Positions 1,825 through 49,926 of a stretch of DNA of 64,000 nt are shown here, one piece after another. The stretch comes from Escherichia phage ph0011. The first letter of the stretch is position 1, and every line of letters starts with the position of its first letter. A program made the position numbers and the translations under genes. The DNA lies in sequence record OP557969.1. One strand, given 5' to 3'. Below the pieces are notes generated by a model. The model did no database searches, was not told the origin of the DNA, and saw only the letters and a list, made by a program, of their open reading frames with translations.

Positions 1825-2664
1825 ATGACAAGTAGACCAAAGCGTAAAAAGTATCTCAACAATGCAGATTTACTTCGTGAAATACAAAAAAGTAAGATTT
1901 CATACTGCTGGTTATTAGATAAATCATATAGTATGTATGATTATATTGTCTTTCATGAATCTGAAATCACGGCTGAGTTACTTGAAAAAGCTAAAGCAGC
2001 ACGAATTAAAAGACTCAACAATGAAATGCTTGAAAGTATTCGTGCAAAGGAAAACATGAGTGCAAAAAAAGCAAAGGAATATGCAGAAGAGAATAATTTA
2101 GTTATTACTGACGTTCCAATTGATGAAGTTGTTATTCGTGTTATTACTGATGAACACATTCCACCAGATACTAGAGTTAACTTTGAACCATTCAAGCATT
2201 ATATTGTGGATAATGAAGGTATCCTTTATGAAGTTTGTCGTTCTCACTGGAAAGGTGACCTAGAAACAGGTGAATTCTGCACTATTCACGGTAAAATTAC
2301 TAATGAATTGGGTAAAATGTTCATTAAACTTGCAGAGGAAATCTCACACAAATCTAATTATAGAAACTATACTTACTTAGATGAAATGATGGGCGATGCA
2401 AGAATTCAATTAGTTAAAAATGCACTACTCTTTAAAGAGAGTATTCTTTATAAAAAAGATAAACCAGCCGTACAATTAAATCCTTTCTCTTACTATACAT
2501 CGTTTGTTAACAATAGCTTTCGTTCTATTTTGAATAGTGAGAAAAATGTTCGAAATATACGTGATGATTTACTCGAAATGCATGGTTTTACACCATCACA
2601 CACACGTCAAATTGAAATTGAATTGAACATGATTGAAAGGAAAAATGAAGATGGCTCTATTTGA
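1825..2664 (+). CDS. 55: Late-transcription sigma factor gp55-like
   Basis: The N-terminus (KRKKYLNNADLLREIQ) resembles the T4 gp55 N-terminus as recalled from memory; it is followed by gp47 and gp46 as in T4. Confidence 0.65.
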   Translation: MTSRPKRKKYLNNADLLREIQKSKISYCWLLDKSYSMYDYIVFHESEITAELLEKAKAARIKRLNNEMLESIRAKENMSAKKAKEYAEENNLVITDVPIDEVVIRVITDEHIPPDTRVNFEPFKHYIVDNEGILYEVCRSHWKGDLETGEFCTIHGKITNELGKMFIKLAEEISHKSNYRNYTYLDEMMGDARIQLVKNALLFKESILYKKDKPAVQLNPFSYYTSFVNNSFRSILNSEKNVRNIRDDLLEMHGFTPSHTRQIEIELNMIERKNEDGSI

Positions 2665-6442: not shown

Positions 6443-6536
6443 AAATCCCCACCAAACTAATTTTTATAAAAATATTTATGAGTTACATTAGAGAACAATA
6501 ATTATGTGTTTTTTGATAAATAAATTTAAATTATTT

Positions 6537-6564
6537 GAGACAACTTTGAAGTTTGTGCTATAAT
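6537..6564 (+). promoter_or_regulatory. Sigma70-type promoter: GAGACA, 16-nt spacer, TGTGC-TATAAT (6559..6564); no annotated gene downstream
   Basis: Same conserved motif as the other five promoters; A/T-rich upstream region. Confidence 0.5.
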
Positions 6565-7015
6565 GTTTGATGTAGTAATGACAATCCTGTTGAATGCAGA
6601 AATGCATATAAATTAGAACCTGATCCTATCGAAAATGTAGATGGCAGATGAGCAGTTCAACAGTGCGATGAGCAGAAGAAACCCGTCAGAAGTGGGCATA
6701 GTTTGAACCCCTCACGGCAATGCGGCTCAATAAAGAACTCCGATAAGCACACAGAGAGTTCCTAGATAGACATATAAGGAATCACACCTTACCAGATTTG
6801 CTAAGGGAGTTTATTAATTGATTTTAATAAACAGCCTGAAGTTTGATTGTATAGACTTTCAGGTGAGTGCTGGGATGAAAAGACCAGTGACCGTTGCATA
6901 TGACCGTGATAGGGAGAAACAGAGCAACCCGCTTCCGTTTGTGATTGATCATTTTTACAATATAGATCCGTCCAAAATTCACGATACAATAAATGCTGAA
7001 ACCATCAGCGTCAAG

Positions 7016-7040
7016 AAGAGACTTAATTGTCTCTTTTTTA
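7016..7040 (+). terminator. Rho-independent terminator closing the orphan transcription unit
   Basis: Hairpin AGAGAC-TTAATT-GTCTCT followed by TTTTTT. Confidence 0.55.
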
Positions 7041-7255
7041 TTACTTTCATTCCCCTGTGGGGGGATGAAAATGTCCTCAACAAATCCCGTCAAGTTTTAA
7101 ATCTTTAAAAGTTCTTTCTAAATTAATTTAATGAAATGAATATGAGTTACGTAGTAACGAATATTCTTCAGGTAACGAATGAAATGAGTTAGCTGAATCC
7201 AATATATTAAAATTAATCTTTCATAATTCAATTCAAATAATTCTGTAGTTTAAAA

Positions 7256-7285
7256 ACAAAAAACCAGCAACAATGTGCTGGTAAT
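7256..7285 (-). terminator. Rho-independent terminator of the minus-strand operon 8339..7294
   Basis: On the minus strand: CCAGCA-CATTGT-TGCTGG followed by TTTTTT. Confidence 0.55.
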
Positions 7286-7293
7286 TATGTGAT

Positions 7294-8339: not shown

Positions 8340-8462
8340 TTTGTTAAATCTCCATGTAATAAATGTGTTTGTAGTATTTATAATACTAAAAACAAACAAT
8401 TTTTTTATATTATATATAGTTTCATAAATATTTCTATAATACATCTATTAAAAGGGAATGTT

Positions 8463-10664
8463 ATGGCTGGAAATACAAGTGATTACCTACTACAACAGTT
8501 GGTTAATCAAACTAAAGATAACAATGATAGCTTGAGTGCTATACGTGAGTTATTGGCTGAAAATATAAAAAATGACAGAAAGAAATCCGGTTCTAAAAGT
8601 AGAAAACATAACGAAAGAACTTCATCTGGTTCTGGGAATCGTGGTTCTAAAGCTAATAATGTAGGTGGTGGTAAAGAATTTGGTAAAATATTCAAATCAT
8701 TATCATCTGAAGTATCAAATGTTGGAAAAACAATGATGAGTACATCTGCTAACGTCAGCAACGTTGTCAATTCACTGGGAATGAGTGCATCTTCATTTGC
8801 TGGTTCACTGGCAATGATTCCTGGGCCAGTTGGTGCAGCCGCTACTGCTTTTAAAATGGTCGCTGACGTTGGTATGGCAGTATATAATGTATTAAACGCA
8901 CAACTTGAAGTTTATAATAGAATAAACAGTGCTGGTGTTGCCCTATCTGAAGGTTATGGTTCCATATTAAAAGGTGCAGGTGCATCAATGATGAGTGTTG
9001 ATGCATTTGGTGAAGCATTACAAACACATAGTTCCGTTGTTGCACAATTGGATGGAGCATATGGTGATGGTGTTTCCACCTTTGGTAAATTATTGGGTAC
9101 TGTACAACAGGCACAAAATCAATTGGGTTTATATGGAGTTTCACAAAAAACACTAACTGATTTAACTGCACGTAATATTAAATTCCAAAAGCAATTTGGT
9201 GGAAGAGAAATGTTACGTAGTATGGATCAAGCAAAAAGTACTGAACAGTTTATCATGAGCATGACTAAGTTCAGTAAAAGTATGGGTGAGTCGGTTGATG
9301 CACTATTAAATAAAACACAAAACTTAGATAAATCATTAGATACACGTTCAATGCAAATAGCATTACAGAACTATTCTGGGCTATCAGGTAAAGCAGCAGT
9401 CGAAACGTCAAAAGCATTTAACGAAGCTGCTGCGAGTATGGGTGATGCTGGTGCAGATTTCCTACGTTTAATTTCACATCGTTTAACCATTGGTGGTGTA
9501 CCAGATGATTTATTGACTCCAGTACTTAATCAATTTGCTGACTTAGGTGAGAACTTGGTACGTAGTGGTGTTACTGATTCGCAAGAAATTCGCCGCCAGC
9601 AGATAGAATTTGTTAAAAAGAACAAAGAATTAATAAAGCAAGATTTATTACATCAGATTAATTTAGGAAACACTACTGCTGCAATCTTCAACCAACAACT
9701 ACTCGATATGGAAGCTGCGATAAACGATCCTAAGAGTCAACCAGCAGATAAATTAACACAATTCACTGATAGATTCAACAGATGGATTAGTAAAGAGTTT
9801 ACTGGACCATTTAATAAAATGTATGCAGATACACAAAATTCTATTGCGGATTACCTTACTGATATTGCTGATAGTACTGATGGTGCATGGGAATTCATCG
9901 GAAAGTTAGCACTTGATGGTTTTGGTTTGGTTCCTATTGCGAAAGATGCCGTTGTGTATTTGGATAGGATCGGTGGTGAGTTTGAGCAGTGGTTAGAAGG
10001 GTTAGGTACTGAAATTTTTGGTAGTGGATATAATAAAGTTTCAGAAGCATTCAATAGTTTTATGAATAACTTAATGGATTTACCTGGAAAACTATGGGAT
10101 TCTGTAAAAGGTTGGTTTGGTGGTTCGAAAGATAAACCAAAAGTTGATAATAATTCAGTCACCGATGGAGTAGAAAAAGTTAATAGCTACTTCGAAGATA
10201 AAATGAATTCATTTGGGGATTATATTTCCAATTCATTTGACCATTTTTTGAAATGGAATTCAAGTAGGAACTTTAAACAACCTAAACCACTTGATGGTTC
10301 AGTTGCAGAAAAACTTATTGGTACTGGTATTGATAGTAAACCCACAACAACTACTAGAATCGAAAAATCTGAACACGTTGCTCCGTATGTTACCATTACA
10401 CCAAAAACTTTTGATAAGTCAGCATGGGGACCGAATGAACCGCCAGTTCAAGCTCAACCGGACGATAATGAGGCTATGAAAGCGATGATAAATAATGGTA
10501 GTAGTATGGCAAATATTAATAATAATGCCACAATATCAGAAGATATGAAAGAGTTACTTAAAAAACTTGCTGATGTTAACGAGCAATCACTATCTGCTGT
10601 ACAACAGACAAATAACTATCTAAGAACTATCTCTGAAAACACTCAAGGTGAGAGAAACAGTTAA
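8463..10664 (+). CDS. Putative tail tape-measure / baseplate hub protein (gp29-like)
   Basis: 733 aa, Ala/Ser/Gly/Met-rich with low-complexity segments, typical of tape-measure proteins; call rests on composition and position only. Confidence 0.3.
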   Translation: MAGNTSDYLLQQLVNQTKDNNDSLSAIRELLAENIKNDRKKSGSKSRKHNERTSSGSGNRGSKANNVGGGKEFGKIFKSLSSEVSNVGKTMMSTSANVSNVVNSLGMSASSFAGSLAMIPGPVGAAATAFKMVADVGMAVYNVLNAQLEVYNRINSAGVALSEGYGSILKGAGASMMSVDAFGEALQTHSSVVAQLDGAYGDGVSTFGKLLGTVQQAQNQLGLYGVSQKTLTDLTARNIKFQKQFGGREMLRSMDQAKSTEQFIMSMTKFSKSMGESVDALLNKTQNLDKSLDTRSMQIALQNYSGLSGKAAVETSKAFNEAAASMGDAGADFLRLISHRLTIGGVPDDLLTPVLNQFADLGENLVRSGVTDSQEIRRQQIEFVKKNKELIKQDLLHQINLGNTTAAIFNQQLLDMEAAINDPKSQPADKLTQFTDRFNRWISKEFTGPFNKMYADTQNSIADYLTDIADSTDGAWEFIGKLALDGFGLVPIAKDAVVYLDRIGGEFEQWLEGLGTEIFGSGYNKVSEAFNSFMNNLMDLPGKLWDSVKGWFGGSKDKPKVDNNSVTDGVEKVNSYFEDKMNSFGDYISNSFDHFLKWNSSRNFKQPKPLDGSVAEKLIGTGIDSKPTTTTRIEKSEHVAPYVTITPKTFDKSAWGPNEPPVQAQPDDNEAMKAMINNGSSMANINNNATISEDMKELLKKLADVNEQSLSAVQQTNNYLRTISENTQGERNS

Positions 10665-10675
10665 GGACGAAAATA

Positions 10676-12415
10676 ATGAGTTGGAAACGACATATGACAA
10701 TGGGAAGGTCTAAATTATCGACCATCCCAAATCAGTCCAGTAATAGCAATAAATCAACGGGAACTAAAACAAATTTCGCTTCCTATCTACCAGTTGTATA
10801 TAATGGATTGGCAAATCGCACTGAACGTTATAGTCAGTACGAGCAAATGGACCAAGACCCTGAAATTAGAACTGCATTAAATATCATTGCTGACTTCTGT
10901 ACACAAAGTACTGAAGACTATGGTTTGCCATATAAAATTAAATACAAAGATGATATTGGTGATACAGAAGTAACTACAATTGAAGACCGTTTGGATGCTT
11001 GGACTGAACAAAATGATTTTAAAACACGAATGTATGAAATTGTACGTGGTCTTCTTAAATATGGCGACCAGTTTTTTATTCGTGACCCAGAAACATTTGA
11101 TTGGTATTGGGTGAGTCCAAAAAACGTTGAACAAGTGTTTGTTAACGAAGCTACTGGAAAAACACCAGTAATTTATTACATACGAGATGTGTCATTGAAC
11201 CTGAAAGATAAGGTTTTTAGTAACCTACAAGTAGGATTTGATAAAACAGCTTATCCTGGTGCGATCCCTACAACAATGGGTGGGGGTGGTTCAGTAGCTG
11301 CGGGTGGTGCGTCTGGATTTACCAGCCAAGGAAATACTGCTGACCCATTCAGTACTAATGGACAATTGGACGTTATTCCTGTTGGTGCAGAACACGTAAT
11401 TCATCTAACACTAAATACAGGACAAGATGGGGTATGGCCTTTTGGAACAAGTATACTTGAGGACGTATTTAAAGTCTATAAGCAAAAAGAACTTCTGGAA
11501 GATAGTATTATAATTTATCGTGTACAACGTGCACCGGAACGTCGTGTGTTTAAAATTGATGTTGGTGATATGCAAGCACACCAAGCAATGGCTTATGTGG
11601 AAAGATTTAAAAATGAAATCCACCAGCGTAGAATACCTTCGAACAAAGGTGGAAGCACTTCATTGATGGATGCTGCATATAATCCATTAAGCATTTTAGA
11701 AGATTACTTTTTTCCACAAACTTCCGAAGGTCGTGGTTCTGATGTCCAAACACTACCTGGTGGTGATAACTTGGGACAAATTGATGACTTACGTTATTTT
11801 AATAATAAATTGATTCGTGGTCTTCAAATACCAGCTTCATATCTACCACAAGGTCCAGATGATGGCGGTGTTTCGCTATTTGGTGATGGTGCTACACAAG
11901 CTATGGCAAGTGAATTGCGATTCAATAATCAATGTATGCGTTATCAGCGTTTGGTTGCAAAACACTTTGATGCTGAGTTTAAAAGATTTATGGTTAAAAA
12001 TGGTTATAATATTAGTACTTCATCTTTTGAGGTTATAATGAATCCACCTATTAACTTGGCTTCTTATCGTAAAGCAGAGTTGGATGCTAAATTGATTAAC
12101 ACCTATCTTCCTCTTAATGACTTGCCTTATATGGCTAAACAAACAATTCTTGAAAAAATGGGATTTTCTAAATCTGATATTGTCAAGAATGAACAATTGT
12201 GGTTACAAGAAAATCCACAAGATGGTTCCCAACCTACTGGTGATGAAGAAGAATCCGCAGGTTTGCAGTCTGTTGGTATTGACGCACCAAATGACCCTGG
12301 TATGGATCTTGGTATTGATGGCGATGGTAATTTGGAAAGTGCTGATGCAGAATATCAAGAACAACAAAGTGGAAGTGACGGTTTTGACCCGAATAATTTA
12401 GGCAATTCTTTTTAA
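10676..12415 (+). CDS. 20: Portal vertex protein gp20
   Basis: 579 aa; N-terminal motif YEQMDQDPEIRTALNIIADF resembles the conserved portal signature; immediately upstream of the head-morphogenesis genes. Confidence 0.65.
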   Translation: MSWKRHMTMGRSKLSTIPNQSSNSNKSTGTKTNFASYLPVVYNGLANRTERYSQYEQMDQDPEIRTALNIIADFCTQSTEDYGLPYKIKYKDDIGDTEVTTIEDRLDAWTEQNDFKTRMYEIVRGLLKYGDQFFIRDPETFDWYWVSPKNVEQVFVNEATGKTPVIYYIRDVSLNLKDKVFSNLQVGFDKTAYPGAIPTTMGGGGSVAAGGASGFTSQGNTADPFSTNGQLDVIPVGAEHVIHLTLNTGQDGVWPFGTSILEDVFKVYKQKELLEDSIIIYRVQRAPERRVFKIDVGDMQAHQAMAYVERFKNEIHQRRIPSNKGGSTSLMDAAYNPLSILEDYFFPQTSEGRGSDVQTLPGGDNLGQIDDLRYFNNKLIRGLQIPASYLPQGPDDGGVSLFGDGATQAMASELRFNNQCMRYQRLVAKHFDAEFKRFMVKNGYNISTSSFEVIMNPPINLASYRKAELDAKLINTYLPLNDLPYMAKQTILEKMGFSKSDIVKNEQLWLQENPQDGSQPTGDEEESAGLQSVGIDAPNDPGMDLGIDGDGNLESADAEYQEQQSGSDGFDPNNLGNSF

Positions 12416-12488
12416 ACATAAATAATATTGTATAAAAGTGAGGGTGAAATTAAACCCTCATTTATAATGCATATTTCAAGGAGATTGA

Positions 12489-12716
12489 ATGTTAAAGGAC
12501 ATCTTTGAATCTAGCAGTGATTCAATGTACGACCCTGAAGATGATCAGAACGTATATAAAATTACTGATTCCAGAAAACCGAAACTGACATTACAAGTAC
12601 TAAACAATTTAAGAAAGTATCGTGAATTTAAAGCACATGAAGAACAACGCCGCAAAAATGTGGTTGCAGTTGTTTATGCCGCTGCACCATCTGGTGACGG
12701 TTCTGGACTAATGTAA
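12489..12716 (+). CDS. Small head-module protein (gp67 position)
   Basis: 75 aa ORF between portal and protease; a hairpin and late-promoter-like motif lie upstream. Confidence 0.3.
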   Translation: MLKDIFESSSDSMYDPEDDQNVYKITDSRKPKLTLQVLNNLRKYREFKAHEEQRRKNVVAVVYAAAPSGDGSGLM

Positions 12717-12805
12717 GTTAAAAATCGCACTTTTTGAAGCTTTTAAAAAAGGCGATTTTATTCAGTACTAAATAATATCATACTTTATACGAATATAATA
12801 TATCT

Positions 12806-13654
12806 ATGGAGGATATAATGGCGAATTTAAAACTACTACAAGAAGCAATTGCGGCGTTTGCAAATGGCGAGCAAGATATTGCTGATAAAAAAATGCGTAA
12901 GTATTTTGTTGAACAAGCACAAGAAATTAACAAAAAGCTAGAAGAAAGCATGGAAGACGAAGAAAGCATTGAAGATGAAGACGTCGAAGATGAAGAAAAG
13001 CTTGATGAAGATTTTGACGTACAACCAGATGCAGGTCTTAATGCAGAAATCCAATACACCCTTGGTGAAGAAGATGAAAGTGCAGAAGACGAAGTTGAGA
13101 TTTCTGCTGATGCAGATGCCGATGGTGAAGATGATGTTGATGTTGATGTAAAAGCAGATGCTGAAGTTCCTTCTGAAGATCAATGGGAATCAATTCAAGA
13201 TGCTTTCCGTGGTCTACAGCAAATGTTTGATGAAATTGGTGATGGTGAAGTTGACCTAGACTCCGATGAAGAAGTCGAAGATAGTGAAGAAGAAGTTGGT
13301 GTTGATGGTGATGATGAATTCGCTGATATTGAATTTGGTGATGAAAAAATCGGTGAATCATTCAAACTAGAAAAAGTTGCACCAGTTGATAAGAAAGAAA
13401 AAGCAGGAACTCATACTAAATCACCAGTTGCACCAGAAGCTAAATCACCAGTAGATGGTGTAGAACCAGTTAAATTCGCTAAGAAAACTGATCAAGCACC
13501 ACTAGTTGATCTTGATGATAAATCTGTTCTACCAAAAGATAATCTAGATCTTGGTAAAAACGCTCGTGGTGAAATGAAAGATGTCAAAGAACCAAAAACT
13601 ACTGCATCTAAGTCCAAATCACCACTAAGCAAAGCACAACCTAAACTAAAATAA
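12806..13654 (+). CDS. Highly acidic prohead core / internal protein-like
   Basis: Long Glu/Asp-rich N-terminal half and Lys/Pro-rich C-terminus with repeated KSPV; position between portal and protease. Confidence 0.35.
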   Translation: MEDIMANLKLLQEAIAAFANGEQDIADKKMRKYFVEQAQEINKKLEESMEDEESIEDEDVEDEEKLDEDFDVQPDAGLNAEIQYTLGEEDESAEDEVEISADADADGEDDVDVDVKADAEVPSEDQWESIQDAFRGLQQMFDEIGDGEVDLDSDEEVEDSEEEVGVDGDDEFADIEFGDEKIGESFKLEKVAPVDKKEKAGTHTKSPVAPEAKSPVDGVEPVKFAKKTDQAPLVDLDDKSVLPKDNLDLGKNARGEMKDVKEPKTTASKSKSPLSKAQPKLK

Positions 13655-13674
13655 ATATCTGAAAGGAGATCATT

Positions 13675-14298
13675 ATGAGTAGTATGATTCGTGAATGGTC
13701 TTCATTCAATGATTCTAAAGTTGTTTTGGAACATCGTGATAATGGATTTGGTGGGCGTGATTGCTATCTTCGTGGCATTGCTATTCAAGCTGACCAACGA
13801 AATTTGAACGAGAGAATTTACCCTTTATCTGAAATTACAAGGGCAGTAAATAACATGAACCAGCGTTTAGCTAAAGGTGAAAGCATTCTTGTTGAATGTG
13901 ACCATCCAGAAACATTAACTATTAATCTGGACCGAGTAGCAGCAATGATTACTAAGGTTTGGATGGAAGGTGCTAATGGTATGGCAGAAATCAAATTACT
14001 TGATACTGCACATGGTCAAAATATCCGTAAAATGCTAGAGGCTGGTGTGAAACTTGGTGTAAGTTCTCGCGGTTCCGGTAACGTTGATTATAATGGAATA
14101 GTTTCTGATTTTGAAATTATCACTATTGATATTGTTGCTCAACCTAGTGCTCCAGAAGCATACCCAACAGCGGTATTTGAATCTCTGATGAGTAAGTACG
14201 GATCACCTTGTAAAAGTTCTAAAAAAATCACTGAATCTAAAAAGGTAAATAACTTAGATTCCGAAATATACGATTTTTTCAAGAAATTAAAAGGTTAA
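13675..14298 (+). CDS. Prohead protease gp21-like
   Basis: 207 aa (T4 gp21 is about 212 aa) immediately before the scaffold and major capsid genes; ATAAATATCT late motif upstream. Call rests on synteny. Confidence 0.45.
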   Translation: MSSMIREWSSFNDSKVVLEHRDNGFGGRDCYLRGIAIQADQRNLNERIYPLSEITRAVNNMNQRLAKGESILVECDHPETLTINLDRVAAMITKVWMEGANGMAEIKLLDTAHGQNIRKMLEAGVKLGVSSRGSGNVDYNGIVSDFEIITIDIVAQPSAPEAYPTAVFESLMSKYGSPCKSSKKITESKKVNNLDSEIYDFFKKLKG

Positions 14299-14309
14299 CA
14301 TTTTAAAAA

Positions 14310-14317
14310 TATAAATA
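14310..14317 (+). promoter_or_regulatory. T4-type late promoter motif TATAAATA upstream of the scaffold gene
   Basis: Exact TATAAATA 48 nt upstream of the ATG at 14365, followed by a hairpin (ATCTGTA...TACAGAT). Confidence 0.45.
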
Positions 14318-14364
14318 TCTGTATATTGAAGTACAGATATTTCAGTACTTAAAGGAGAGAACGA

Positions 14365-15480
14365 ATGTCTAAATTAGAAAAGCTTCTAAAAGAATCATCT
14401 CTTTCTGATGAGGCAAAACAGCTAATTCAGGAAGCATGGAATGAAGAAAAGAATACACTAGCCGCAGAGATGCGTGAAGAAATGAAAGGTCGTTACCAGC
14501 AGGATTTGGCTGAACTAACTGAAGGTTTGAACACTATGGTTACTCAAGTCATTGCTGAAGAAATGGGTGCTGTATATGAAGAGAAAAAACGTCTTGTTGA
14601 AGATCGTGTAACTCTACGTAAAACACTAAGCAATTTCTCTGCGTTTTCGAACTCTGTATTGGCAGAAGAAGTTAAACAAATGCGTAAAGAACGTAAGCAT
14701 CTTCATGAATGTATGGGTAAATTTGTTAATTTTTCTAACGGTATCCTAGCAGAAGAGCTAAAAGAATTCCACAATGAAAAACGTCAACTAGTTGAAACAC
14801 GTGTAAAACTACTTGCTGAAGGTTCACGTCAAATTGCTGAAGCTCGTAATAACTTCATCAAACGTACATCTGAAAGTGCTGCTAAATATATTGCAGAGAC
14901 AACTCAGAAGAATCTATATGCGTTGAAACAAGATCTAGTGGAAGCGAAACAAAATATGTTTGGTCGTAAAATCTTTGAAGCATTTGCTCAAGAATTTAAT
15001 GTCAAACAATTCAATGAAAATTCATTGCTACGTTCACTAACTGAAACAATTAAATCTAAAGAAGATGAAATTGATCAAGTTAAGCAAGAACTACATGAAA
15101 CTGTTAATGCGGTCAAAGCTGCTAAAACTAAACTACGTATTATGGAAGATGCACAAGCCCGTAATGCGATTATGTCTGAACTAGTAAAACCACTAACAGC
15201 ACAGCAAAAACAAATTATGGAATCCCTTCTAGCAACTTCACCTACTGAAAAGCTTAAAGAAGATTTCAATAAGTACCATAAGTCAGTACTTAACGGTACT
15301 AAAGTAAATGAATCTGCTACCACTCGTCAAGCAGTTCAGTCTTCCGCTAAGAAAACTCTTGCAGAAGGTAAAGTGATCACTGGCAACCGTCAGGCTATTG
15401 TTGAAAGCGAAGAAATGACCGCTGACGATATGGCATTCCTAAAAGAACTTGATGTTCTTTCTGGTATCAATAAAAAATAA
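14365..15480 (+). CDS. Prohead scaffold protein gp22-like
   Basis: 371 aa, highly charged and helical with heptad-like repeats; directly upstream of the major capsid gene. Confidence 0.5.
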   Translation: MSKLEKLLKESSLSDEAKQLIQEAWNEEKNTLAAEMREEMKGRYQQDLAELTEGLNTMVTQVIAEEMGAVYEEKKRLVEDRVTLRKTLSNFSAFSNSVLAEEVKQMRKERKHLHECMGKFVNFSNGILAEELKEFHNEKRQLVETRVKLLAEGSRQIAEARNNFIKRTSESAAKYIAETTQKNLYALKQDLVEAKQNMFGRKIFEAFAQEFNVKQFNENSLLRSLTETIKSKEDEIDQVKQELHETVNAVKAAKTKLRIMEDAQARNAIMSELVKPLTAQQKQIMESLLATSPTEKLKEDFNKYHKSVLNGTKVNESATTRQAVQSSAKKTLAEGKVITGNRQAIVESEEMTADDMAFLKELDVLSGINKK

Positions 15481-15518
15481 ATATTTTAAAGCATTTTAAT
15501 AATCAAATTTTTCAGTTC

Positions 15519-15526
15519 TATAAATA
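15519..15526 (+). promoter_or_regulatory. T4-type late promoter motif TATAAATA upstream of the major capsid gene
   Basis: Exact TATAAATA 46 nt upstream of the ATG at 15572. Confidence 0.45.
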
Positions 15527-15571
15527 ATAACATACTGAAAAACGAATATAACATCTTTAAGGAGATATATA

Positions 15572-16747
15572 ATGTCACAACTACTAAATGAATCCAAATG
15601 GGTAGCAGTAAAAGAGAAACTAGTTGAAGGTCTACAGGGTACTCGTAAGTCTGTAATGGAAACTGTTCTTGATAACCATCGTAAAGTTATGCTAACTGAA
15701 TCTGCAACTTCTGGTGCAACTACTGCTGGTAACATCGCTACTCTAAACAAAGTGATTCTACCAATTATGCGTCGTGTAATGCCAACTGTTATTGCGAACG
15801 AAATTATCGGTGTTCAACCAATGACTGGTCCAGTTGGTCAGATTCACACCCTACGTGTGCAATATGCTGATAATGCACCTGGTGTTATTGCTGGTGAAGA
15901 AATGCTTTCTCCATACAAAATTGCAAAATCCTACTCTGGTGAACTAAATTCTGATAATAGCAACCCACAAGCTGCTCCTACTAGTCAACTAGAAGGTACT
16001 ATGGGTCGTCGCGTAAATATCCGTATCCTACGTGAAACTGTTGAAGCGAAATCACGTCGTCTATCTGCACGTTGGACTGTTGAATCTGCACAAGATGCAC
16101 AATCTCAACATGGTGTTGATGTTGAAGCTGAACTAATGGCAGCAATTGCACAAGAAGTTACTGTAGAAATCGACCAAGAACTACTAAGCCGTCTACGTGC
16201 ACTACCAGGTGCTGCTGCTGTAACTTATGACCAATCTAAAGTTACCGGTGTTGCAACTTTCGTAGGTGATGAACACGCTGCTCTAGCTACCCTAATCAAC
16301 CGTCAAGCTAACGAAGTTGCTCGTCGTACCAAGCGTGGTGCAGCAAACTGGGCCGTTGTTTCCCCAACTGCTCTAACCATTCTACAGTCTGCAACTACTT
16401 CTAGCTTTGCACGTACCACTGAAGGTACTTTTGAAGCACCAACTAACGTTAAGTTTGTAGGTACTCTAAACAGCACCATGCGTATCTTTGTTGATACCTA
16501 TGCAAGTGATTCTGAAGATATCCTAATTGGTTATAAAGGTAATGCTGAAACTGATGCTGGTGTATTCTATTGCCCATACATCCCACTAATGGCATCCGGT
16601 ACTGTTATGGACCCTAACACTGGTGAATTGGTTACAACTTTCCTAACTCGTTATGGTTACGTACAATTGACCGACAGCACTTCCTCTCTTGGTAACGCTG
16701 CTGACTACTATAGCAAAATCGCTATCAAAAACGTTACTTTCATGTAA
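15572..16747 (+). CDS. 23: Major capsid protein gp23-like
   Basis: Conserved blocks IANEIIGVQPMTGPVGQ, VEAKSRRLSARW and IGYKGNAETDAGVFYCPY match the T4 gp23/gp24 family as recalled from memory. Confidence 0.85.
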   Translation: MSQLLNESKWVAVKEKLVEGLQGTRKSVMETVLDNHRKVMLTESATSGATTAGNIATLNKVILPIMRRVMPTVIANEIIGVQPMTGPVGQIHTLRVQYADNAPGVIAGEEMLSPYKIAKSYSGELNSDNSNPQAAPTSQLEGTMGRRVNIRILRETVEAKSRRLSARWTVESAQDAQSQHGVDVEAELMAAIAQEVTVEIDQELLSRLRALPGAAAVTYDQSKVTGVATFVGDEHAALATLINRQANEVARRTKRGAANWAVVSPTALTILQSATTSSFARTTEGTFEAPTNVKFVGTLNSTMRIFVDTYASDSEDILIGYKGNAETDAGVFYCPYIPLMASGTVMDPNTGELVTTFLTRYGYVQLTDSTSSLGNAADYYSKIAIKNVTFM

Positions 16748-16790
16748 TTATAATCGATTTAAAAAAATAATCAAGAAATTAAAAACAAAA

Positions 16791-16819
16791 AGGGACTCTG
16801 ATGAGTCCCTTTTCTTTTA
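16791..16819 (+). terminator. Rho-independent terminator after the capsid gene
   Basis: AGGGACTC-TGAT-GAGTCCCT followed by a T-tract. Confidence 0.65.
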
Positions 16820-16889
16820 TCTAAATATTGACAAACAGTACTGAAACATGTTATGCTTATGTAAATATAGTAACTATAGAGGAATTTAA

Positions 16890-18488
16890 ATGCTTGGTGA
16901 AATCAAACAGTTTTTGAAGACGAAAAAGTTAAGAGGTGTAAAATCTGCACTTCAAGCAAAACCATTATATGTTGATTACTTAAAAGAAATTTATGGTGAT
17001 ATCGAACTGAATGTTATCATTTACATGGTATTGAATGATATTAAAGAAATTCCAAAAGCAAAATGTGGTAACGATGTAAAGTTTGTTAATTTAATTGAGG
17101 GATTCAGTGACAGATGTAATCTACCGTTTCAGGGAAAAAATAAATGTAAAGTTTGTTCTGTAATGATTTCTGAAAAAAGAAAAAGTACATACAAGAATAA
17201 AACTGGGTATGATAATCCCGGACAGAATCCAGACGTTCGTGACAAGATGTCAAGAACTAATATTAATCGTTACGGAACTACTGTTCCCCAGCAGACCGAT
17301 GTTGTCAAAAAACGTTCAATTGAGACAAATCTTCTTAAGTACGGAGTTGAACATCCCTCAATGTTGGAAGAAAACAAAGAGAAACGCCAAAAAACTGTTT
17401 TTGAAAAGTATGGTGTAGATAATGTACTTAAAACTACACATAAACGCCTTGAAGAACGTTATATGAATTTCAAGAAAAAATATGAATATTCTGGAAAATA
17501 TACATTACTTAGTTCAATTGAAGAGTATGATTCTTCTGTTAATGGTGTTAAAAGTATTCTTTTATGGAAATGTAATACTTGCAACAATACTTTCAATAAA
17601 GTTGCACCGTGTTTAAGATGTCCTAAATGTGAACCATACTCTTCCAGTACTGAAGAAGTTGAATTATATGAATATATTTCATCAATCTATGACGGTGTAA
17701 TTATCCAGAATAGTAGGAATATTATCACAGGTAATGAGATTGATATTTTCATTCCAGAACTGAAACTTGGTATTGAGTTCAATGGTGAGTACTGGCACAG
17801 AGACGAAGTGCGTGGTAATAATTATCATCAGAGCAAATATATTCGTATGAAGGAAAATGGCAACAAACTTATTACTATATATAGTAATGAATGGCGTAAT
17901 AAAACTGACATCGTTAAGCGTAGATTAAAAAGCATTTTAAATACTGATAATAGAGTGTACGCTCGTAAGTGTACTATCGGTTTAGTTCAGAATGATGTAT
18001 GTGATGAGTTTTTGAATACATATCATATACAGGGTAAGTGTAGTTCTTCGATTCGCGTAGGTCTGTATTTGGAAACAGAACTTGTTGCAGTAATGACATT
18101 CGGTAAACCAAGATTTAACAAAGAATATGAATATGAACTACTCCGTTATTGTTCCAAAGATACAGTGGTTGGTGGTGCTTCAAAACTGTTAAAATATTTC
18201 GAAATTACACATGTTCCAAAATCTTTGATATCTTATGCTGATATGAATTGGAGTTCTGGTAATCTATATGAAGCAATTGGATTTCAATTTGTTGAAATGA
18301 CGAAACCTGGATATTTCTATTATGATAAAAAAACAGAAACCACATATTCCAGATACCAATGTCAAAAGCAAAAACTAATATCAAAGTTTGGATTTCCTAA
18401 CACAATGACAGAGAATGAAATGACACGATCACTTGGTTATTACAAAATATATGATTGTGGTAATTTAGTATATAAAAAAGAATACTAA
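16890..18488 (+). CDS. Large free-standing nuclease-like protein, paralog 1 (putative homing endonuclease)
   Basis: N-terminal Cys cluster, repeated (R/K)YGV(E/D) module, central DIFIPELKLGIEFNGEYWH motif resembling Vsr/DUF559 PD-(D/E)xK cores, conserved C-terminal domain; paralog of 51760..53508. Confidence 0.45.
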   Translation: MLGEIKQFLKTKKLRGVKSALQAKPLYVDYLKEIYGDIELNVIIYMVLNDIKEIPKAKCGNDVKFVNLIEGFSDRCNLPFQGKNKCKVCSVMISEKRKSTYKNKTGYDNPGQNPDVRDKMSRTNINRYGTTVPQQTDVVKKRSIETNLLKYGVEHPSMLEENKEKRQKTVFEKYGVDNVLKTTHKRLEERYMNFKKKYEYSGKYTLLSSIEEYDSSVNGVKSILLWKCNTCNNTFNKVAPCLRCPKCEPYSSSTEEVELYEYISSIYDGVIIQNSRNIITGNEIDIFIPELKLGIEFNGEYWHRDEVRGNNYHQSKYIRMKENGNKLITIYSNEWRNKTDIVKRRLKSILNTDNRVYARKCTIGLVQNDVCDEFLNTYHIQGKCSSSIRVGLYLETELVAVMTFGKPRFNKEYEYELLRYCSKDTVVGGASKLLKYFEITHVPKSLISYADMNWSSGNLYEAIGFQFVEMTKPGYFYYDKKTETTYSRYQCQKQKLISKFGFPNTMTENEMTRSLGYYKIYDCGNLVYKKEY

Positions 18489-18516
18489 AATACATTATTG
18501 AAACAAGGAGGTTTCG

Positions 18517-18867
18517 GTGTTAACTGTATATATTTTTAAGAAAGAAGAGTACTTAAAGAGTCAGTACTCTAAAATTGAGATTAACGTTCCCTATGGAACA
18601 TTGGTTGGTTATGACGAATCTAGCGAAACCTTGTTTTATAATGATGATAAACTTGACTATAGCATTGATTCATTTATTGAAGATATACTTGATAGTAATA
18701 CAGAAGATATGTTGTATGAAGAATACTTAGATGCGTACAGAGAACGTATGTCAAAGTTACATGCTGATGCTCCAGTACTAAACATTACGCAAAAACCTTC
18801 TGAATTTGAACCACATAATCCGTTTCAACGTTTAATTGATATTGGTTTAAAATTCACTATTAATTGA
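18517..18867 (+). CDS. Hypothetical protein (116 aa)
   Basis: GTG start preceded by a strong AAGGAGG ribosome-binding site. Confidence 0.35.
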   Translation: MLTVYIFKKEEYLKSQYSKIEINVPYGTLVGYDESSETLFYNDDKLDYSIDSFIEDILDSNTEDMLYEEYLDAYRERMSKLHADAPVLNITQKPSEFEPHNPFQRLIDIGLKFTIN

Positions 18868-18906
18868 TAGATAAATATCTCCATATTAATGATGGAGATT
18901 GAATCT

Positions 18907-19215
18907 ATGTCACAAATATGTTATGTTATCATAAATTCTGCGTGGCCTGATTATGTTAAGATTGGGTTCACATCAAAATCCGAAATGACTGAGCGTTTGA
19001 GAACATATCAGACAGCTACACCTTTCAGAGATTTTGAGGTATACCATGAGGTGTATTTTGATGATGCACGTTTGGCTGAAAAAGAAATTCATAAAAGACT
19101 AAAGCAAATGAATGCAATTAGACAACCGAACACTGAGTGGTTTAAAATGTCTAAAAAGATCGCCGCAAACATTATTGACTCCATAAGGGATGATATGGAT
19201 AATGATATGTTATAG
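18907..19215 (+). CDS. T5orf172 / GIY-YIG-like domain protein
   Basis: Pattern CYVIIN...YVKIGFTS...RL..YQT...EWFK fits the T5orf172 domain consensus; GGAG precedes the ATG at 18907 (the track ORF starts at 18889). Confidence 0.45.
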   Translation: MSQICYVIINSAWPDYVKIGFTSKSEMTERLRTYQTATPFRDFEVYHEVYFDDARLAEKEIHKRLKQMNAIRQPNTEWFKMSKKIAANIIDSIRDDMDNDML

Positions 19216-19255
19216 GAATAAATATAGTATATATTAATCATAAAGGGATTTATAC

Positions 19256-20869
19256 ATGAGCATAAGTTTTAATAACCCACTGGATACAATGACCAGTACT
19301 GGTGCTAATGGTTCTTTGGAACTAATAGTGCTTGGTGGTACACCAACTAACCCAAGACCTATTCGTTTTAATTCATCATCAGTTATTATGCCAGTAAAAA
19401 CATTACCGACTGGTGAACAAGGTGCAATGGTTTTTGATAGAAACGAATTAGTGTTAAAGTATCATAATGGTACTAGTTGGATTGCAATATACGACAATGA
19501 TACTATTTTAGAACCAATTAGGGTTTCGTTGGATGAAGTAAACAGAAAATTAAACTTAAAGGTTGAAAGTGTAACATACAGTAGTAGTTCTGTTCCAAGT
19601 GCAAGTATCAGTGGAACAAACTTAAACATCGTATTCCCTACTGTTTCTAGTGGTGGTGGTTCAGGGCCAACTGGCCTTTATACTTCACTTAAACCTGGTG
19701 TTATCACACAGTACGCATTGACTTCTGGTCAAAACGTTGCTAGTATACGTGAACAAATGTCTGGACAAACCAATGGTCAAAATGGACGAAATGGTTCGCA
19801 AGCTGCTCCATGGAAAACATCAGATGGATGGTGCTTTGCTGATGGTATGTGGTGGCAATGGGAAGGTGAAAATGGCACAGTTACTAAACAAGTACCAAAT
19901 CTTAACAGAAACGCGTATTTAAAAGGGATATCCACATCAGGGGTAACCAAAACGGATAGTGTTATTGGGAGCAGTGGTAACATTAGCGGAACTGTTTTGA
20001 GTGTAGCACAATTGCCTTCACATTCATTTAGTTTTAGCGGAAGAACTGATGCTGCTGGTCGCCACAGCCATAGTCAAGCACTAAAAGGTATGGACCGAAG
20101 TGGTCTAAATGCGTTAACATCAAGTAATGATAACGGTATACCAACAGTAATTAGTAACATTAATGAAGCACCAGACCATGTTCACTCATTTAGTGGAAAC
20201 ACAAACACACTTGGTGGGAATCAGCCACATTATCATGGTATCAGTAATGTTGATGTTGAGCACTTTAACGTGGCATATTTATATAACATTGCAGAATCAA
20301 ACGTAGCACTGAGTGAAAAAGTAGCAAATACGCGTTATGTACTGAAATCAGGTGATACAATGACTGGTTCTTTAACTATTGCCAACAGTGCATCTATTAA
20401 GTCTAATGATACATCATTAGTTCTATATTTCCGTAACGCAAGCGGCGGTGAACGTGCGGCTGTTTACCATAATTCATCAAACAACACGTTGCGATTACGT
20501 TCCGGTGGTGCTGAAGTAGCAGTAAACTCTTCAGGTAACTTGTCTGCTCCTTCATTAACTGTTTCTAATAATTCAGCTACTGTTGGTGGTAAAAATATTG
20601 TTCGCACTATCAATGGTACAGCGGCTGATGGTAATGGTAATGTTTCATTGCAAATTAATTCGAATAACGTACAAAGTATTCGTTTGAGTGCAAGAATTGA
20701 AACAAGTAAAATTCCAGATTCTTCATGGACATACGCACCTGAAGGTGCACTCATGGATGGTGTATGGATTTCAGTGAACGGTAGTTCAGGAACTCATTTG
20801 GAACGTATTAGCTATCGTTATATTCAAATGCAGGTAAATGGCAATTGGGAAACGGTACGACAACAATAA
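19256..20869 (+). CDS. Tail fiber protein with HxH metal-binding motifs
   Basis: Ser/Gly/Thr/Asn-rich 537-aa protein; three HxH motifs (RHSHS, DHVHS, PHYHG at 20058..20238); followed by a tail fiber assembly gene. Confidence 0.5.
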   Translation: MSISFNNPLDTMTSTGANGSLELIVLGGTPTNPRPIRFNSSSVIMPVKTLPTGEQGAMVFDRNELVLKYHNGTSWIAIYDNDTILEPIRVSLDEVNRKLNLKVESVTYSSSSVPSASISGTNLNIVFPTVSSGGGSGPTGLYTSLKPGVITQYALTSGQNVASIREQMSGQTNGQNGRNGSQAAPWKTSDGWCFADGMWWQWEGENGTVTKQVPNLNRNAYLKGISTSGVTKTDSVIGSSGNISGTVLSVAQLPSHSFSFSGRTDAAGRHSHSQALKGMDRSGLNALTSSNDNGIPTVISNINEAPDHVHSFSGNTNTLGGNQPHYHGISNVDVEHFNVAYLYNIAESNVALSEKVANTRYVLKSGDTMTGSLTIANSASIKSNDTSLVLYFRNASGGERAAVYHNSSNNTLRLRSGGAEVAVNSSGNLSAPSLTVSNNSATVGGKNIVRTINGTAADGNGNVSLQINSNNVQSIRLSARIETSKIPDSSWTYAPEGALMDGVWISVNGSSGTHLERISYRYIQMQVNGNWETVRQQ

Positions 20870-20875
20870 GGAAAT

Positions 20876-21391
20876 GTGCAAATGCAACTAACTAATTTTA
20901 AGATGTACGATAAAGAAGATGGAAATCCAAATTCTTTGTATATGATGTCCGATGAAGGCATGGATTGGTATGAATCTCGTGGTCTGTTTGACATTAACAA
21001 AGCCAAATTTATGTATGATGCCAATGGATTGATAGTTTCTGCATCATATGACATTTATGATCTAGTACCTTTGGGGTTTAGTGTTTCTGAAATTGAGTAC
21101 GATGGTGACGTTAACAAACTTTATGGTATGATTTATGATGGTAAAACTATCAAGGAGTATGTAGAAACCAAAGAAGAAAAGATTGAACGTCTTAAGATTG
21201 AATTGGAAAAATTAAAATACTCTGCAATTCAACAGCTTGGGCATTTGAAAACAGCTATGGATCTTGAGTTAGCATCAGATGAAGAAGCTGTATTGTTTGC
21301 AAAATTAAAAGAGTATGTAACACAATTGTCGTCAATTAAACCAGTAGATATGGTCAAAAAAACATTTTCATTTCCAGTCAAACCTGAATAA
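20876..21391 (+). CDS. Tail fiber assembly chaperone (Tfa / gp38-like)
   Basis: 171 aa immediately downstream of the fiber gene; composition and C-terminal helical region typical of Tfa proteins. Confidence 0.45.
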   Translation: MQMQLTNFKMYDKEDGNPNSLYMMSDEGMDWYESRGLFDINKAKFMYDANGLIVSASYDIYDLVPLGFSVSEIEYDGDVNKLYGMIYDGKTIKEYVETKEEKIERLKIELEKLKYSAIQQLGHLKTAMDLELASDEEAVLFAKLKEYVTQLSSIKPVDMVKKTFSFPVKPE

Positions 21392-28959: not shown

Positions 28960-35278
<6,319 letters not shown>

Positions 35279-49477: not shown

Positions 49478-49870
49478 ATGAAACCATATACTTTCTACAC
49501 TATACATACTGTAGTAGATATCGGTGATGGTAAAACTCCAACAATAATAGATTCAAAGTTTACTGGTGCAATGAATTTATCTAGATTGTTGGAGGCAATT
49601 ATGGTATATGATTATCCTATGATGGTAAGTGTTGTTAAAAATGAAGTTGATTTATATAAAGATAATAATTCATCTTTTTATAATATACCAATTTCATGGG
49701 GTAAATGTACAATAAGCACATTTAAATTTGCACTACCAATGGATGTTGAACTTAGATTGAATGGTATTCCATTAGTTCTACCAACTGAATTAAATGGTAA
49801 ACGAATAACTAAATTTATCACATCTGGTGATGATATCAACATTAGCATCAGTAAACAGACCTTTTCTTAA
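49478..49870 (+). CDS. Hypothetical protein (130 aa)
   Basis: ORF in track. Confidence 0.3.
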   Translation: MKPYTFYTIHTVVDIGDGKTPTIIDSKFTGAMNLSRLLEAIMVYDYPMMVSVVKNEVDLYKDNNSSFYNIPISWGKCTISTFKFALPMDVELRLNGIPLVLPTELNGKRITKFITSGDDINISISKQTFS

Positions 49871-49926
49871 TTGTGATAAATATCATAAAGTGAGACAAAG
49901 GTCTTTTTTATTTTTATGGAGAAAAT

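Follow-up and report, generated by a model that had tools for sequence, protein, structure and literature searches.

The late promoters of bacteriophage T4 carry a single box, TATAAATA, which occupies positions -13 to -6 and is read by the sigma factor gp55 (Geiduschek & Kassavetis 2010, PMC2988020). Among T4-type late boxes an A at -13 is tolerated, and a CTAAATA-like variant is known in Aeh1. The core (A/C)TAAATA has itself already been published as 'Promoter 3', the predicted late promoter of phages CBB and GAP32 (Buttimer et al. 2017, PMC5259590; Abbasifar et al. 2014). T4 is also the source of a control device in which a late promoter lies within a hairpin, described for e, soc, 49, I-TevI/II/III and segB and for mobE of Aeh1 (McPheeters 1986; Gott 1988; Gibb & Edgell 2007-2010; PMC2988022, PMC3014915). 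Here we describe the late-promoter box of a 64,000-nucleotide (nt) stretch of DNA from Escherichia phage ph0011 (record OP557969.1), analysed as a whole and referred to below as the window, together with a putative RNA switch in the leader of its T5orf172 gene. A preliminary description of the window had drawn attention to a 10-mer, ATAAATATCT, in which TCT follows the sequence ATAAATA, and had proposed it as an extended late promoter. The explanation that we favour, and hold to be probably correct, is that the late box is (A/C)TAAATA, that TCT is no recognition element and that the leader of T5orf172 acts as a switch.

The window is Asteriusvirus (121Q/PBECO4-like) jumbo myophage DNA. Over the region compared (12400-20900) it is 88-92% identical to the Asteriusviruses 121Q, PBECO4, UE-S1 and others, and ~77% identical to the wider Rak2-like group (GAP32, CBB, fHe-Yen9, RaK2, Munch and Kae01). 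The genes of this region are arranged in the order portal, 75-amino-acid (aa) gene, virion protein, prohead protease (Peptidase_S77), scaffold, major capsid protein, variable endonuclease, 116-aa gene, T5orf172 and tail fibre. The coordinates of all features are collected in Table 1.

The T5orf172 gene and its leader

The T5orf172 gene encodes a small protein with a T5orf172/MUG113 domain. An in-frame ATG at 18889 lacks a Shine-Dalgarno (SD) sequence and is an unlikely start, and 121Q annotates the 102-aa form. The gene has a fixed position, shared by 12 of the 13 sequenced genomes and by related IMG/VR contigs, with 65-88% identity across genera; at the RaK2 locus no orthologue was identified. 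Because it is syntenic and conserved to this degree, T5orf172 is, as judged from these genome comparisons, a resident gene and not a mobile one, and does not show the sporadic presence that characterises a free-standing homing endonuclease. The variable gene is the neighbouring open reading frame (ORF) at 16890-18488.

The third copy of ATAAATATCT lies immediately before this gene, within a predicted structure of two helices, the inner of which pairs the bases that follow the box with the SD sequence while the outer extends into the start codon. To compare this region we used 17 distinct T5orf172 leaders from the 13 sequenced phages and from IMG/VR contigs, which were anchored by hand for the covariation test since the MAFFT alignment of the 17 leaders was out of structural register. 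The box (A/C)TAAATA is kept in all 17 leaders, and the bases next to it vary (TCTCC, TCTTC, CTTCC, CCTCC, CTCCC, CCCC, ACCC and ACTC). Eight arm types result, with arm and SD segments pairing as AUCUCC/GGAGAU, AUCUUC/GGAGAU (including a G.U pair), ACUUCC/GGAGGU, ACCUCC/GGAGG, ACUCCC/GGGGGU, ACCCC/GGGGU, ACCC/GGGU and AACUCACCU/AGGAGAGUU. Without exception among the 17, the contiguous 5' arm starts no more than 1 nt from the last A of the box. The four levels after the box, +1 to +4, are paired with the SD sequence in 17, 17, 16 and 16 of the leaders, respectively, and the pairs observed are U-A, C-G or A-U at +1, C-G or U.G at +2, U-A or C-G at +3 and C-G or U.G at +4, with changes on both sides at +1 and +3. 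When arms were matched to their own SD segments the summed run was 52, against a mean of 40.3 for cross-matched arms, a value as high being reached in 1 of 5000 permutations, which ignore phylogeny. The outer helix covaries too, by way of a synonymous Ser codon (AGAUA/UGUCU to CGAUA/UGUCG). The presence of G.U pairs places the structure on the sense RNA and not on the DNA. Distant T5orf172 homologues (IMG/VR, ~40% identity, L033-L096) gave no usable upstream comparison, and no earlier report of a T5orf172 leader was found in the literature.

The box and the helices overlap in such a way that the state of the leader may depend on where the transcript begins. The spacing known from T4 puts the predicted start, 18883, at the seventh of the eight arm bases. 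RNA that reads through from upstream folds at -6.3 to -15.4 kcal/mol (17 leaders), whereas RNA truncated at the predicted late start folds at -1.2 to -5.4 kcal/mol (12 genomes), and the calculated probability that the SD sequence is unpaired is 0.00 in the read-through RNA vs 0.41 in the truncated one. We therefore propose a mechanism in which RNA reading in from upstream would fold both helices and bury the SD sequence and AUG of T5orf172, and RNA made from the gene's own late promoter would start inside the 5' arm, lack the structure and so be translated. The + strand shows no terminator-like site from 16814 to 18870. The upstream member of the T5orf172 gene pair in CBB has a middle-type promoter, TGAAACG...TATAAT (Porf_258), in agreement with the logic of the T4 device. 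We put at about even the chances that the leader is a clade-wide, covarying switch that permits translation only from the gene's own promoter in every Rak2-like genus examined, in which case the T4 device would be older than the split between T4-like and Rak2-like phages.

The predicted (A/C)TAAATA late-promoter box

Within the window (A/C)TAAATA occurs 38 times against 57.8 +/- 6.4 expected, and is thus depleted overall, with 17 of the 38 copies lying in the non-coding 5.9% of the sequence. The full T4 box TATAAATA is not enriched in the window (7 found vs 10.5 expected), nor are sigma-70-type sites between 12 and 22 kb (35 vs 41). A genome-wide census was made on the whole 121Q genome, assembled for this purpose, which contains 97 copies of (A/C)TAAATA, 55 of them in its 8.7% non-coding fraction. 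Forty-eight of these 55 are in the sense orientation and 14-130 nt before a start codon. Counted in 50-kb bins, the promoter-positioned boxes number 8, 3, 3, 0, 4, 12 and 18, a distribution that parallels the modules of virion genes and spares the blocks of small early genes. Of the 40 boxes in the first four 121Q blocks (198.5 kb), about 30 stand before annotated virion or assembly genes, including those for tail tube, baseplate, fibres, neck, portal-proximal protein, protease, scaffold, capsid and endonuclease VII. Orthologous intergenic boxes are kept across the Asterius, Mimas, Eneladus and Alcyoneus phages and the Kae01/Munch group, and their flanks diverge; the 8 nt directly 5' of the box show no conservation (<=0.58 bit per position), and the downstream positions are dominated by A and T. 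Position +6 after the box is A at 32 of the 48 sites in 121Q and a purine at 40, and this A-rich position fits the T4 geometry with the box at -13 to -6.

The placement, orientation and conservation of ATAAATA support the earlier proposal that it acts as a late-promoter box, as does the presence in the window of a gp55-like sigma factor gene, whose 279-aa product has an orthologue with the same annotation in 121Q (gp591). The further suggestion that endonuclease-associated genes are expressed with the late genes is consistent with the boxes that such genes carry, namely that of T5orf172 (18871), CTAAATA at 16821 before the ORF at 16890, and ATAAATA before the HNH gene gp584 of 121Q. In our model (A/C)TAAATA would be a -10-type box equivalent to T4 positions -12 to -6, presumably read by host RNA polymerase together with the gp55-like sigma factor (gene 1825-2664), and transcription would start ~6 nt past the last A of the box, usually at an A.

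The 10-mer and the place of TCT

The 10-mer ATAAATATCT is present exactly where it had been reported (13651, 14311 and 18871), always on the + strand and nowhere else in the window, and its first base lies 24 nt before the protease ATG (13675), 54 nt before the scaffold ATG (14365) and 36 nt before the T5orf172 ATG (18907). The capsid gene was likewise correctly said to be preceded by TATAAATA, with the box starting 53 nt before the ATG at 15572. Three copies of the 10-mer exceed the expectation from shuffling (0.44, with none of 100 shuffles reaching three), but the excess does not survive multiple testing. As many as 1,757 distinct 10-mers have at least three copies in the window, against 1,135-1,336 (about 1,250) in Markov surrogates, and since this 10-mer was picked after looking its per-pattern significance has to be discounted.

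The idea that TCT is a conserved extension of the T4 late consensus finds no support in the wider set of sites. TCT follows the box at 3 of ~17 promoter-positioned sites in the window, at 4 of 48 in 121Q (the three orthologues of the window copies and one at 35042) and at 1 of the 35 published CBB sites. The first base after the box in 121Q is A at 25 sites, T at 16, C at 6 and G at 1, and the information at +2 and +3 is 0.14 and 0.21 bit. The protease site has TCT in the window and in 121Q alone, the same position reading AAT in UE-S1 and AAA or AAG in other relatives, and in the Mimas, Eneladus and RaK2 phages the box is absent altogether. The T5orf172 site reads CTT, CCT, CTC, CCC or ACC in relatives, and the scaffold site alone keeps T(C/T)T. 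As TCT is rare after boxes, carries little information there and is lost at the orthologous protease site, it is, on this comparative evidence, outside the promoter recognition sequence, and the three copies of the 10-mer are ordinary T4-style late boxes. The role of TCT would differ from site to site: a lineage-specific sequence at the protease gene, part of the 5' arm of a hairpin at the scaffold gene and, at T5orf172, part of a TCTCC anti-SD segment that pairs with GGAGA. An ATCT/AGAT pairing at the protease site was considered as a structure and rejected (-3.1 kcal/mol, z -0.5, not conserved).

Other promoter hairpins and terminators

A hairpin had also been described after the scaffold copy, at 14318-14340, and placed at the 5' end of the late mRNA. 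Its arms lie instead at 14313-14324 and 14331-14342, overlapping the motif, and T4 geometry puts the start at ~14323, the 3' end of the 5' arm, so that only RNA reading through from the protease gene would form the hairpin. A U-tract is lacking, and the scaffold SD sequence is left uncovered. RNAalifold finds 11 pairs in nine genomes, and the hairpin is kept in four genera; the changes are for the most part G.U-compatible on the + strand, with both sides altered at one pair and four cells broken. The sequence TATAAATAT(C/T)TGTA is kept in 13 of 13 genomes, including RaK2, which is without the 3' arm. The hairpin could serve as a 3'-end stabiliser or as an insulator between a low-copy and a high-copy gene. 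In 11 genomes the structure that encloses the capsid promoter comprises nine pairs, one of which is swapped from A-U to U-A in five of the genomes.

A general rule by which late promoters lie inside hairpins was rejected, the base pairs that span the predicted start numbering on average 11.0 vs 10.6 after shuffling (40 sites in 121Q). Enclosure is therefore specific to certain sites, namely T5orf172, scaffold, capsid, neck and gp49. The last two were seen in 121Q, where two terminator-like hairpins each have a late box in the loop, one at 260929-260976 (L015 10929-10976) at the neck gp13-like gene (AGCACCUC...GAGGUGCU then U6) and the other at 35018-35077 (L013) at gp49 (AAAACUCCAAGAUU...AAUCUUGGAGUUUU then a U-run). 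In both hairpins the 3' arm carries the SD sequence of the next gene. The gp49 box is the fourth ATAAATATCT copy of 121Q, its ATATCT pairing with an upstream AGATAT. The capsid, neck and gp49 promoter hairpins could be variants of the same insulating design.

A near copy of the 10-mer, TGATAAATATCA, does exist at 49874-49885 in a palindrome, as the preliminary description had it, and forms the inner stem-loop of a terminator-like hairpin. A GC-containing stem with a U-tract, the mark of an intrinsic terminator, was found at 49857-49904 and at 16788-16813.

Table 1. Features of the window discussed in the text, with predicted structures, folding energies and predicted transcription starts
Feature	Position	Strand	Details
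gp55-like late sigma factor gene	1825..2664	+	phrog_12791 'sigma factor for late transcription' E 5e-154; phrog_234 'late sigma transcription factor' E 3e-17
ATAAATA box	12418..12424	+	Directly after portal stop, before 75-aa gene at 12489; kept in 5 genera
5'-untranslated-region (UTR) hairpin	12436-12463	+	Region -19.4 kcal/mol, z -3.75; downstream of 12418 box
CTAAATA box	12768..12774	+	Before virion structural gene (ATG 12806/12818); predicted start A of CATAC, 12780
ATAAATATCT copy 1	13651..13660	+	Box overlaps TAA stop of upstream gene, 17 nt before protease ATG; predicted start A13663
ATAAATATCT copy 2	14311..14320	+	TATAAATA at 14310-14317, before scaffold gene; predicted start A14323
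Scaffold hairpin	14313..14342	+	AAAUAUCUGUAU / GUACAGAUAUUU; 12 bp, -12.8 kcal/mol, z -2.6; TCT in 5' arm
Capsid promoter enclosure	15508..15542	+	Arms UUUUUCAGU (15508-15516) and ACUGAAAAA (15534-15542); -8.1 kcal/mol, z -1.5
Capsid promoter TATAAATA	15519-15526	+	Predicted start A15532
CTAAATA box	16821..16827	+	After strong capsid terminator 16788-16813; 63 nt before ORF 16890-18488
Homing-endonuclease-like ORF, 532 aa	16890-18488	+	phrog_3339 'homing endonuclease' E 5e-136; DUF7487; between capsid terminator and 116-aa gene
Two-helix leader of T5orf172	18867..18908	+	-14.2 kcal/mol, z -2.8
Outer helix	18867-18872 / 18903-18908	+	AUAGAU / AUCUAU; extends into AUG at 18907
ATAAATATCT copy 3, ATAAATA box of T5orf172	18871..18880	+	Predicted start A18883
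Inner helix	18877-18884 / 18892-18899	+	AUCUCCAU / AUGGAGAU; predicted to bury SD GGAGA (18894-18898)
T5orf172/MUG113-domain gene, 102 aa	18907..19215	+	Pfam PF10544 E 3e-13, 50.5 bits (cutoff 20); MUG113 49.8 (cutoff 22.3)
ATAAATA box	19218..19224	+	Before tail-fibre gene (ATG 19256); no hairpin, fold z 0.0
Terminator-like compound hairpin	49857..49904	+	Then U-run; -19.4 kcal/mol, z -3.8; kept in 121Q with G.U-compatible change

Alternative explanations

Several observations weigh against the explanation set out above, in which a plain late box is combined with a leader switch. No mapped transcription starts were found in the literature for any phage of the 121Q/Rak2-like group, and all the predicted starts rest on T4 geometry and on the enrichment of A at +6. 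The sigma factor encoded here is larger than gp55 of T4, and homologues of gp33 and gp45 were reported undetected in CBB (PMC5259590), so that the spacing could differ. In the Asteriusviruses the nearest upstream promoter candidates for T5orf172 (16821, and in fEgEco12 a site before the 116-aa gene) are also of late type, and so the switch may set dosage and not timing. Some lineages (L024, L030 and L031; -6 to -7.5 kcal/mol) have a weak or interrupted inner helix. With regard to TCT, all four copies of ATAAATATCT in 121Q are in promoter position, and the four TCT sites there represent a mild excess over the ~0.6 expected from non-coding trinucleotide frequency or the ~1.4 expected from position-specific frequencies, although local RNA structure at two sites would largely account for it. 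Finally, the persistence of T(C/T)TGTA in RaK2 is, as far as the alignment can tell, a site-specific constraint beyond pairing at the scaffold site.

These last three points are the natural ground for the view of the preliminary description, that ATAAATATCT is a genuine extended late consensus in which TCT aids recognition by the late sigma factor or promoter strength; in its favour one can add that the three window copies are just as well positioned on the sense strand, that T(C/T)T is kept at the scaffold site in all genera and that the fibre promoters of the Mimas and Eneladus phages read ATAAATATCTCT. We nevertheless consider it very unlikely, as TCT is missing from 44 of the 48 sites in 121Q and from 34 of the 35 in CBB, A occupies +1 at the capsid, tail-tube and portal-proximal promoters, there is next to no information at +2 and +3, a close relative replaces TCT by AAT at the protease site and other genera exchange it at T5orf172 for covarying anti-SD bases. 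At the opposite extreme, the whole pattern might be AT-rich intergenic noise with ATAAATA no promoter at all. Intergenic DNA is indeed AT-rich and the raw counts of TATAAATA and MTAAATA (M being A or C) are not over-represented, yet the box is depleted in coding and concentrated in non-coding DNA, the 48 sense copies before start codons in 121Q cluster in virion modules, orthologous boxes outlast their diverging flanks across genera and a dedicated late sigma gene is present, which makes this reading scarcely credible.

Two further readings accept the promoter and concern the structures alone. The T5orf172 hairpin could be a constitutive translational attenuator, present in all transcripts and keeping a possibly toxic nuclease-like protein at a low level. 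The SD sequence is buried in every lineage, there is no mapped start site, and with Asteriusvirus upstream promoters that also look late a temporal switch is less clearly needed. An attenuator, however, would need no fixed register, and the 5' arm begins within 1 nt of the box end in all 17 leaders; the A or purine at +6 at most sites would moreover place the start inside the arm, and the arrangement is identical to the experimentally dissected cases of T4. We regard attenuation as unlikely. Very unlikely, in our estimation, is that a dimeric regulator binds the inverted repeats which lie over the promoters of scaffold and T5orf172, these repeats then being operators on the DNA. Autorepression by I-TevI at a late promoter offers a precedent for it, both repeats overlap the promoter box, and the scaffold repeat is unusually conserved in sequence as well as in pairing. 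Against operators, most of the changes allow G.U pairing on the sense strand alone (ATCTTCAT/ATGGAGAT, ACTTCC/GGAGGT, ACTCCC/GGGGGT and ATATTTGTAC/GTACGAATGT) and would be A.C mismatches on DNA or on the other strand, and the arm sequences at T5orf172 change fully between genera while complementarity to the SD sequence is kept.

Other features of the window

The remaining boxes of the head region can be followed across relatives. Each genus has a hairpin at the position of 12436-12463, different in sequence and alike in structure, which would lie near the 5' end of the portal-proximal late mRNA; this suggests a conserved 5'-UTR structure, possibly an mRNA stabiliser. Sites orthologous to the 12768 box read (C/A)TAAATAAnnnCATAC in all genera, and the Mimas and Eneladus orthologues of the fibre box at 19218 read ATAAATATCTCTATAAT. 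A composite sequence, ATAAATAT(T/C)TCTATAAT (window 8424-8440), has a late box directly upstream of a TATAAT hexamer; the virion gene at 8463 and the fibre genes of the Mimas and Eneladus phages are all preceded by it, and ATAAATAnnTCTAT is the reading at four CBB sites. To judge by its sequence, it may combine late and sigma-70-type -10 elements in tandem. The slot occupied by the ORF at 16890-18488 is filled in 121Q by an endonuclease ORF (365 aa) and in JNE01 by an unnamed ORF, both of them shorter, and fEgEco12 has no ORF there; contents that differ in this way give the slot the look of an insertion hot spot.

Extended -10 promoters of the form TGnTATAAT number 15 in the window vs 7.6 expected, with TGCTATAAT at 1759, 6556, 28942, 35270, 46403, 54489 and 60183. 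They precede genes for replication, recombination and nucleotide metabolism as well as a non-coding element, and correspond to the published divergent RpoD-like (probably middle) promoters of CBB and GAP32, 'TGAAACG...TATGGTATAAT'. The element in question lies in an ORF-free stretch (6443-7293, + strand) that contains a TGTGCTATAAT promoter (TGTGCTATAATG, 6553-6564) and ~470 nt of structured sequence with its core at ~6625-7091. There are four to five copies of it per Rak2-like genome (69 records, 277 places), mostly unannotated, and in 121Q each of the four copies fills an unannotated gap (90310-90810, 192836-193316, 247505-248049 and 326664-327159). For seven copies from four lineages RNAalifold gives 86 pairs in 15 helices, including long-range ones, and in 33 of the pairs both sides have changed; the paired fraction of cells is 95.6%, compared with 41-51% for slid controls, and none of 500 shuffles reaches the observed values. 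Searches of the element with Rfam and for tRNA and tmRNA gave no match, and neither did a search of the window for known RNA families with Rfam (gathering threshold) and ARAGORN. From this comparative evidence the element is likely to be an undescribed family of large structured RNA. One idea is that it is an origin-primer RNA, and it may or may not be akin to the four non-coding RNAs of PA5oct.

The hexamer AGTACT occurs 84 times in the window against 15.7 +/- 3.5 in dinucleotide shuffles, an excess of ~5-fold, and synonymous-codon shuffles that keep the proteins and the codon usage give a mean of 27 and a maximum of 36. The extended form AGTACTGAA is found 20 times against 0.85 expected. Copies stand beside promoters studied here (12764, 14344 and 16837), and the excess holds in all reading frames and in intergenic DNA, in five 121Q blocks, one of them made up of small hypothetical genes, and in the head loci of RaK2, GAP32, CBB, Yen9-03, Kae01, Kaldavass and XbC2. 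No report of an AGTACT excess was found in the literature. Among other 6-bp palindromes, all containing G and C, CGATCG, CAGCTG, AGGCCT and AGCGCT (~5.7 expected each) and CCGCGG and CCCGGG (~1.5 expected each) are absent from the window, and GTGCAC is over-represented 3.3-fold. The pattern of these other palindromes may reflect restriction avoidance.

Implications for annotation

For the annotation of 121Q-like jumbo phages the useful signal would be (A/C)TAAATA with an A ~6 nt downstream, and not the 10-mer; some 50 late transcription units would be predicted in each genome. The T5orf172 leader adds a comparatively supported case, outside the T4-like phages, of translation gated by the choice of promoter. 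If this is true, T5orf172 protein would be made only from transcripts of its own late promoter, which would mark it as a dosage- or timing-critical late function. No general concept is changed by these findings, and the four-copy structured element and the AGTACT excess may merit more attention than the promoters.

Comparison with known systems

The late promoters of the window share with those of the T4 type a single -10-type box without a -35 element (to judge by a flank profile of the 8 nt directly 5' of the box and by the count of sigma-70-type sites), an AT-rich downstream region, a position before virion genes and an encoded gp55-like sigma factor. They differ in having a core of 7 nt, (A/C)TAAATA, the full TATAAATA being found at only 2 of ~10 head-module sites, in the size of the sigma factor (279 aa) and in that gp33 and gp45 were reported undetected in CBB. 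Closer still is Promoter 3 of CBB and GAP32, in which ATAAATA is likewise followed by A/T-rich sequence and whose 35 sites stand before structural genes, including the orthologous scaffold and fibre sites. That list, made with MEME on one genome, does not contain the T5orf172 promoter, the hairpins or the anti-SD arrangement.

As for the structures, the hairpin at 49857-49904 resembles an intrinsic terminator in its GC-containing stem, its U-run and its position directly after a stop codon, here with an ATAAATA box in the loop, whereas the stems of the scaffold (14313-14342) and capsid (15508-15542) hairpins are A/U-rich and lack a U-tract. The T5orf172 leader is best compared with the control of e and I-TevI in T4. 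In both, the SD sequence or AUG is sequestered on read-through RNA, the late box lies in the DNA of the 5' arm, which late transcripts would thus lack, and the gene is related to nucleases of the GIY-YIG clan; a stable helix sequestering SD and AUG was found here, with covariation in its support. The leader differs in belonging to a Rak2-like jumbo phage and to a syntenic gene of 102 aa that has the T5orf172 domain only and is not obviously mobile, in its second helix, which reaches the AUG, and in that its effect on translation is a predicted one. The late box had already been predicted, and what is new, on the comparison of leaders made here, is a comparatively supported promoter within a ribosome-binding-site hairpin, of the T4 class, upstream of a conserved T5orf172 gene.

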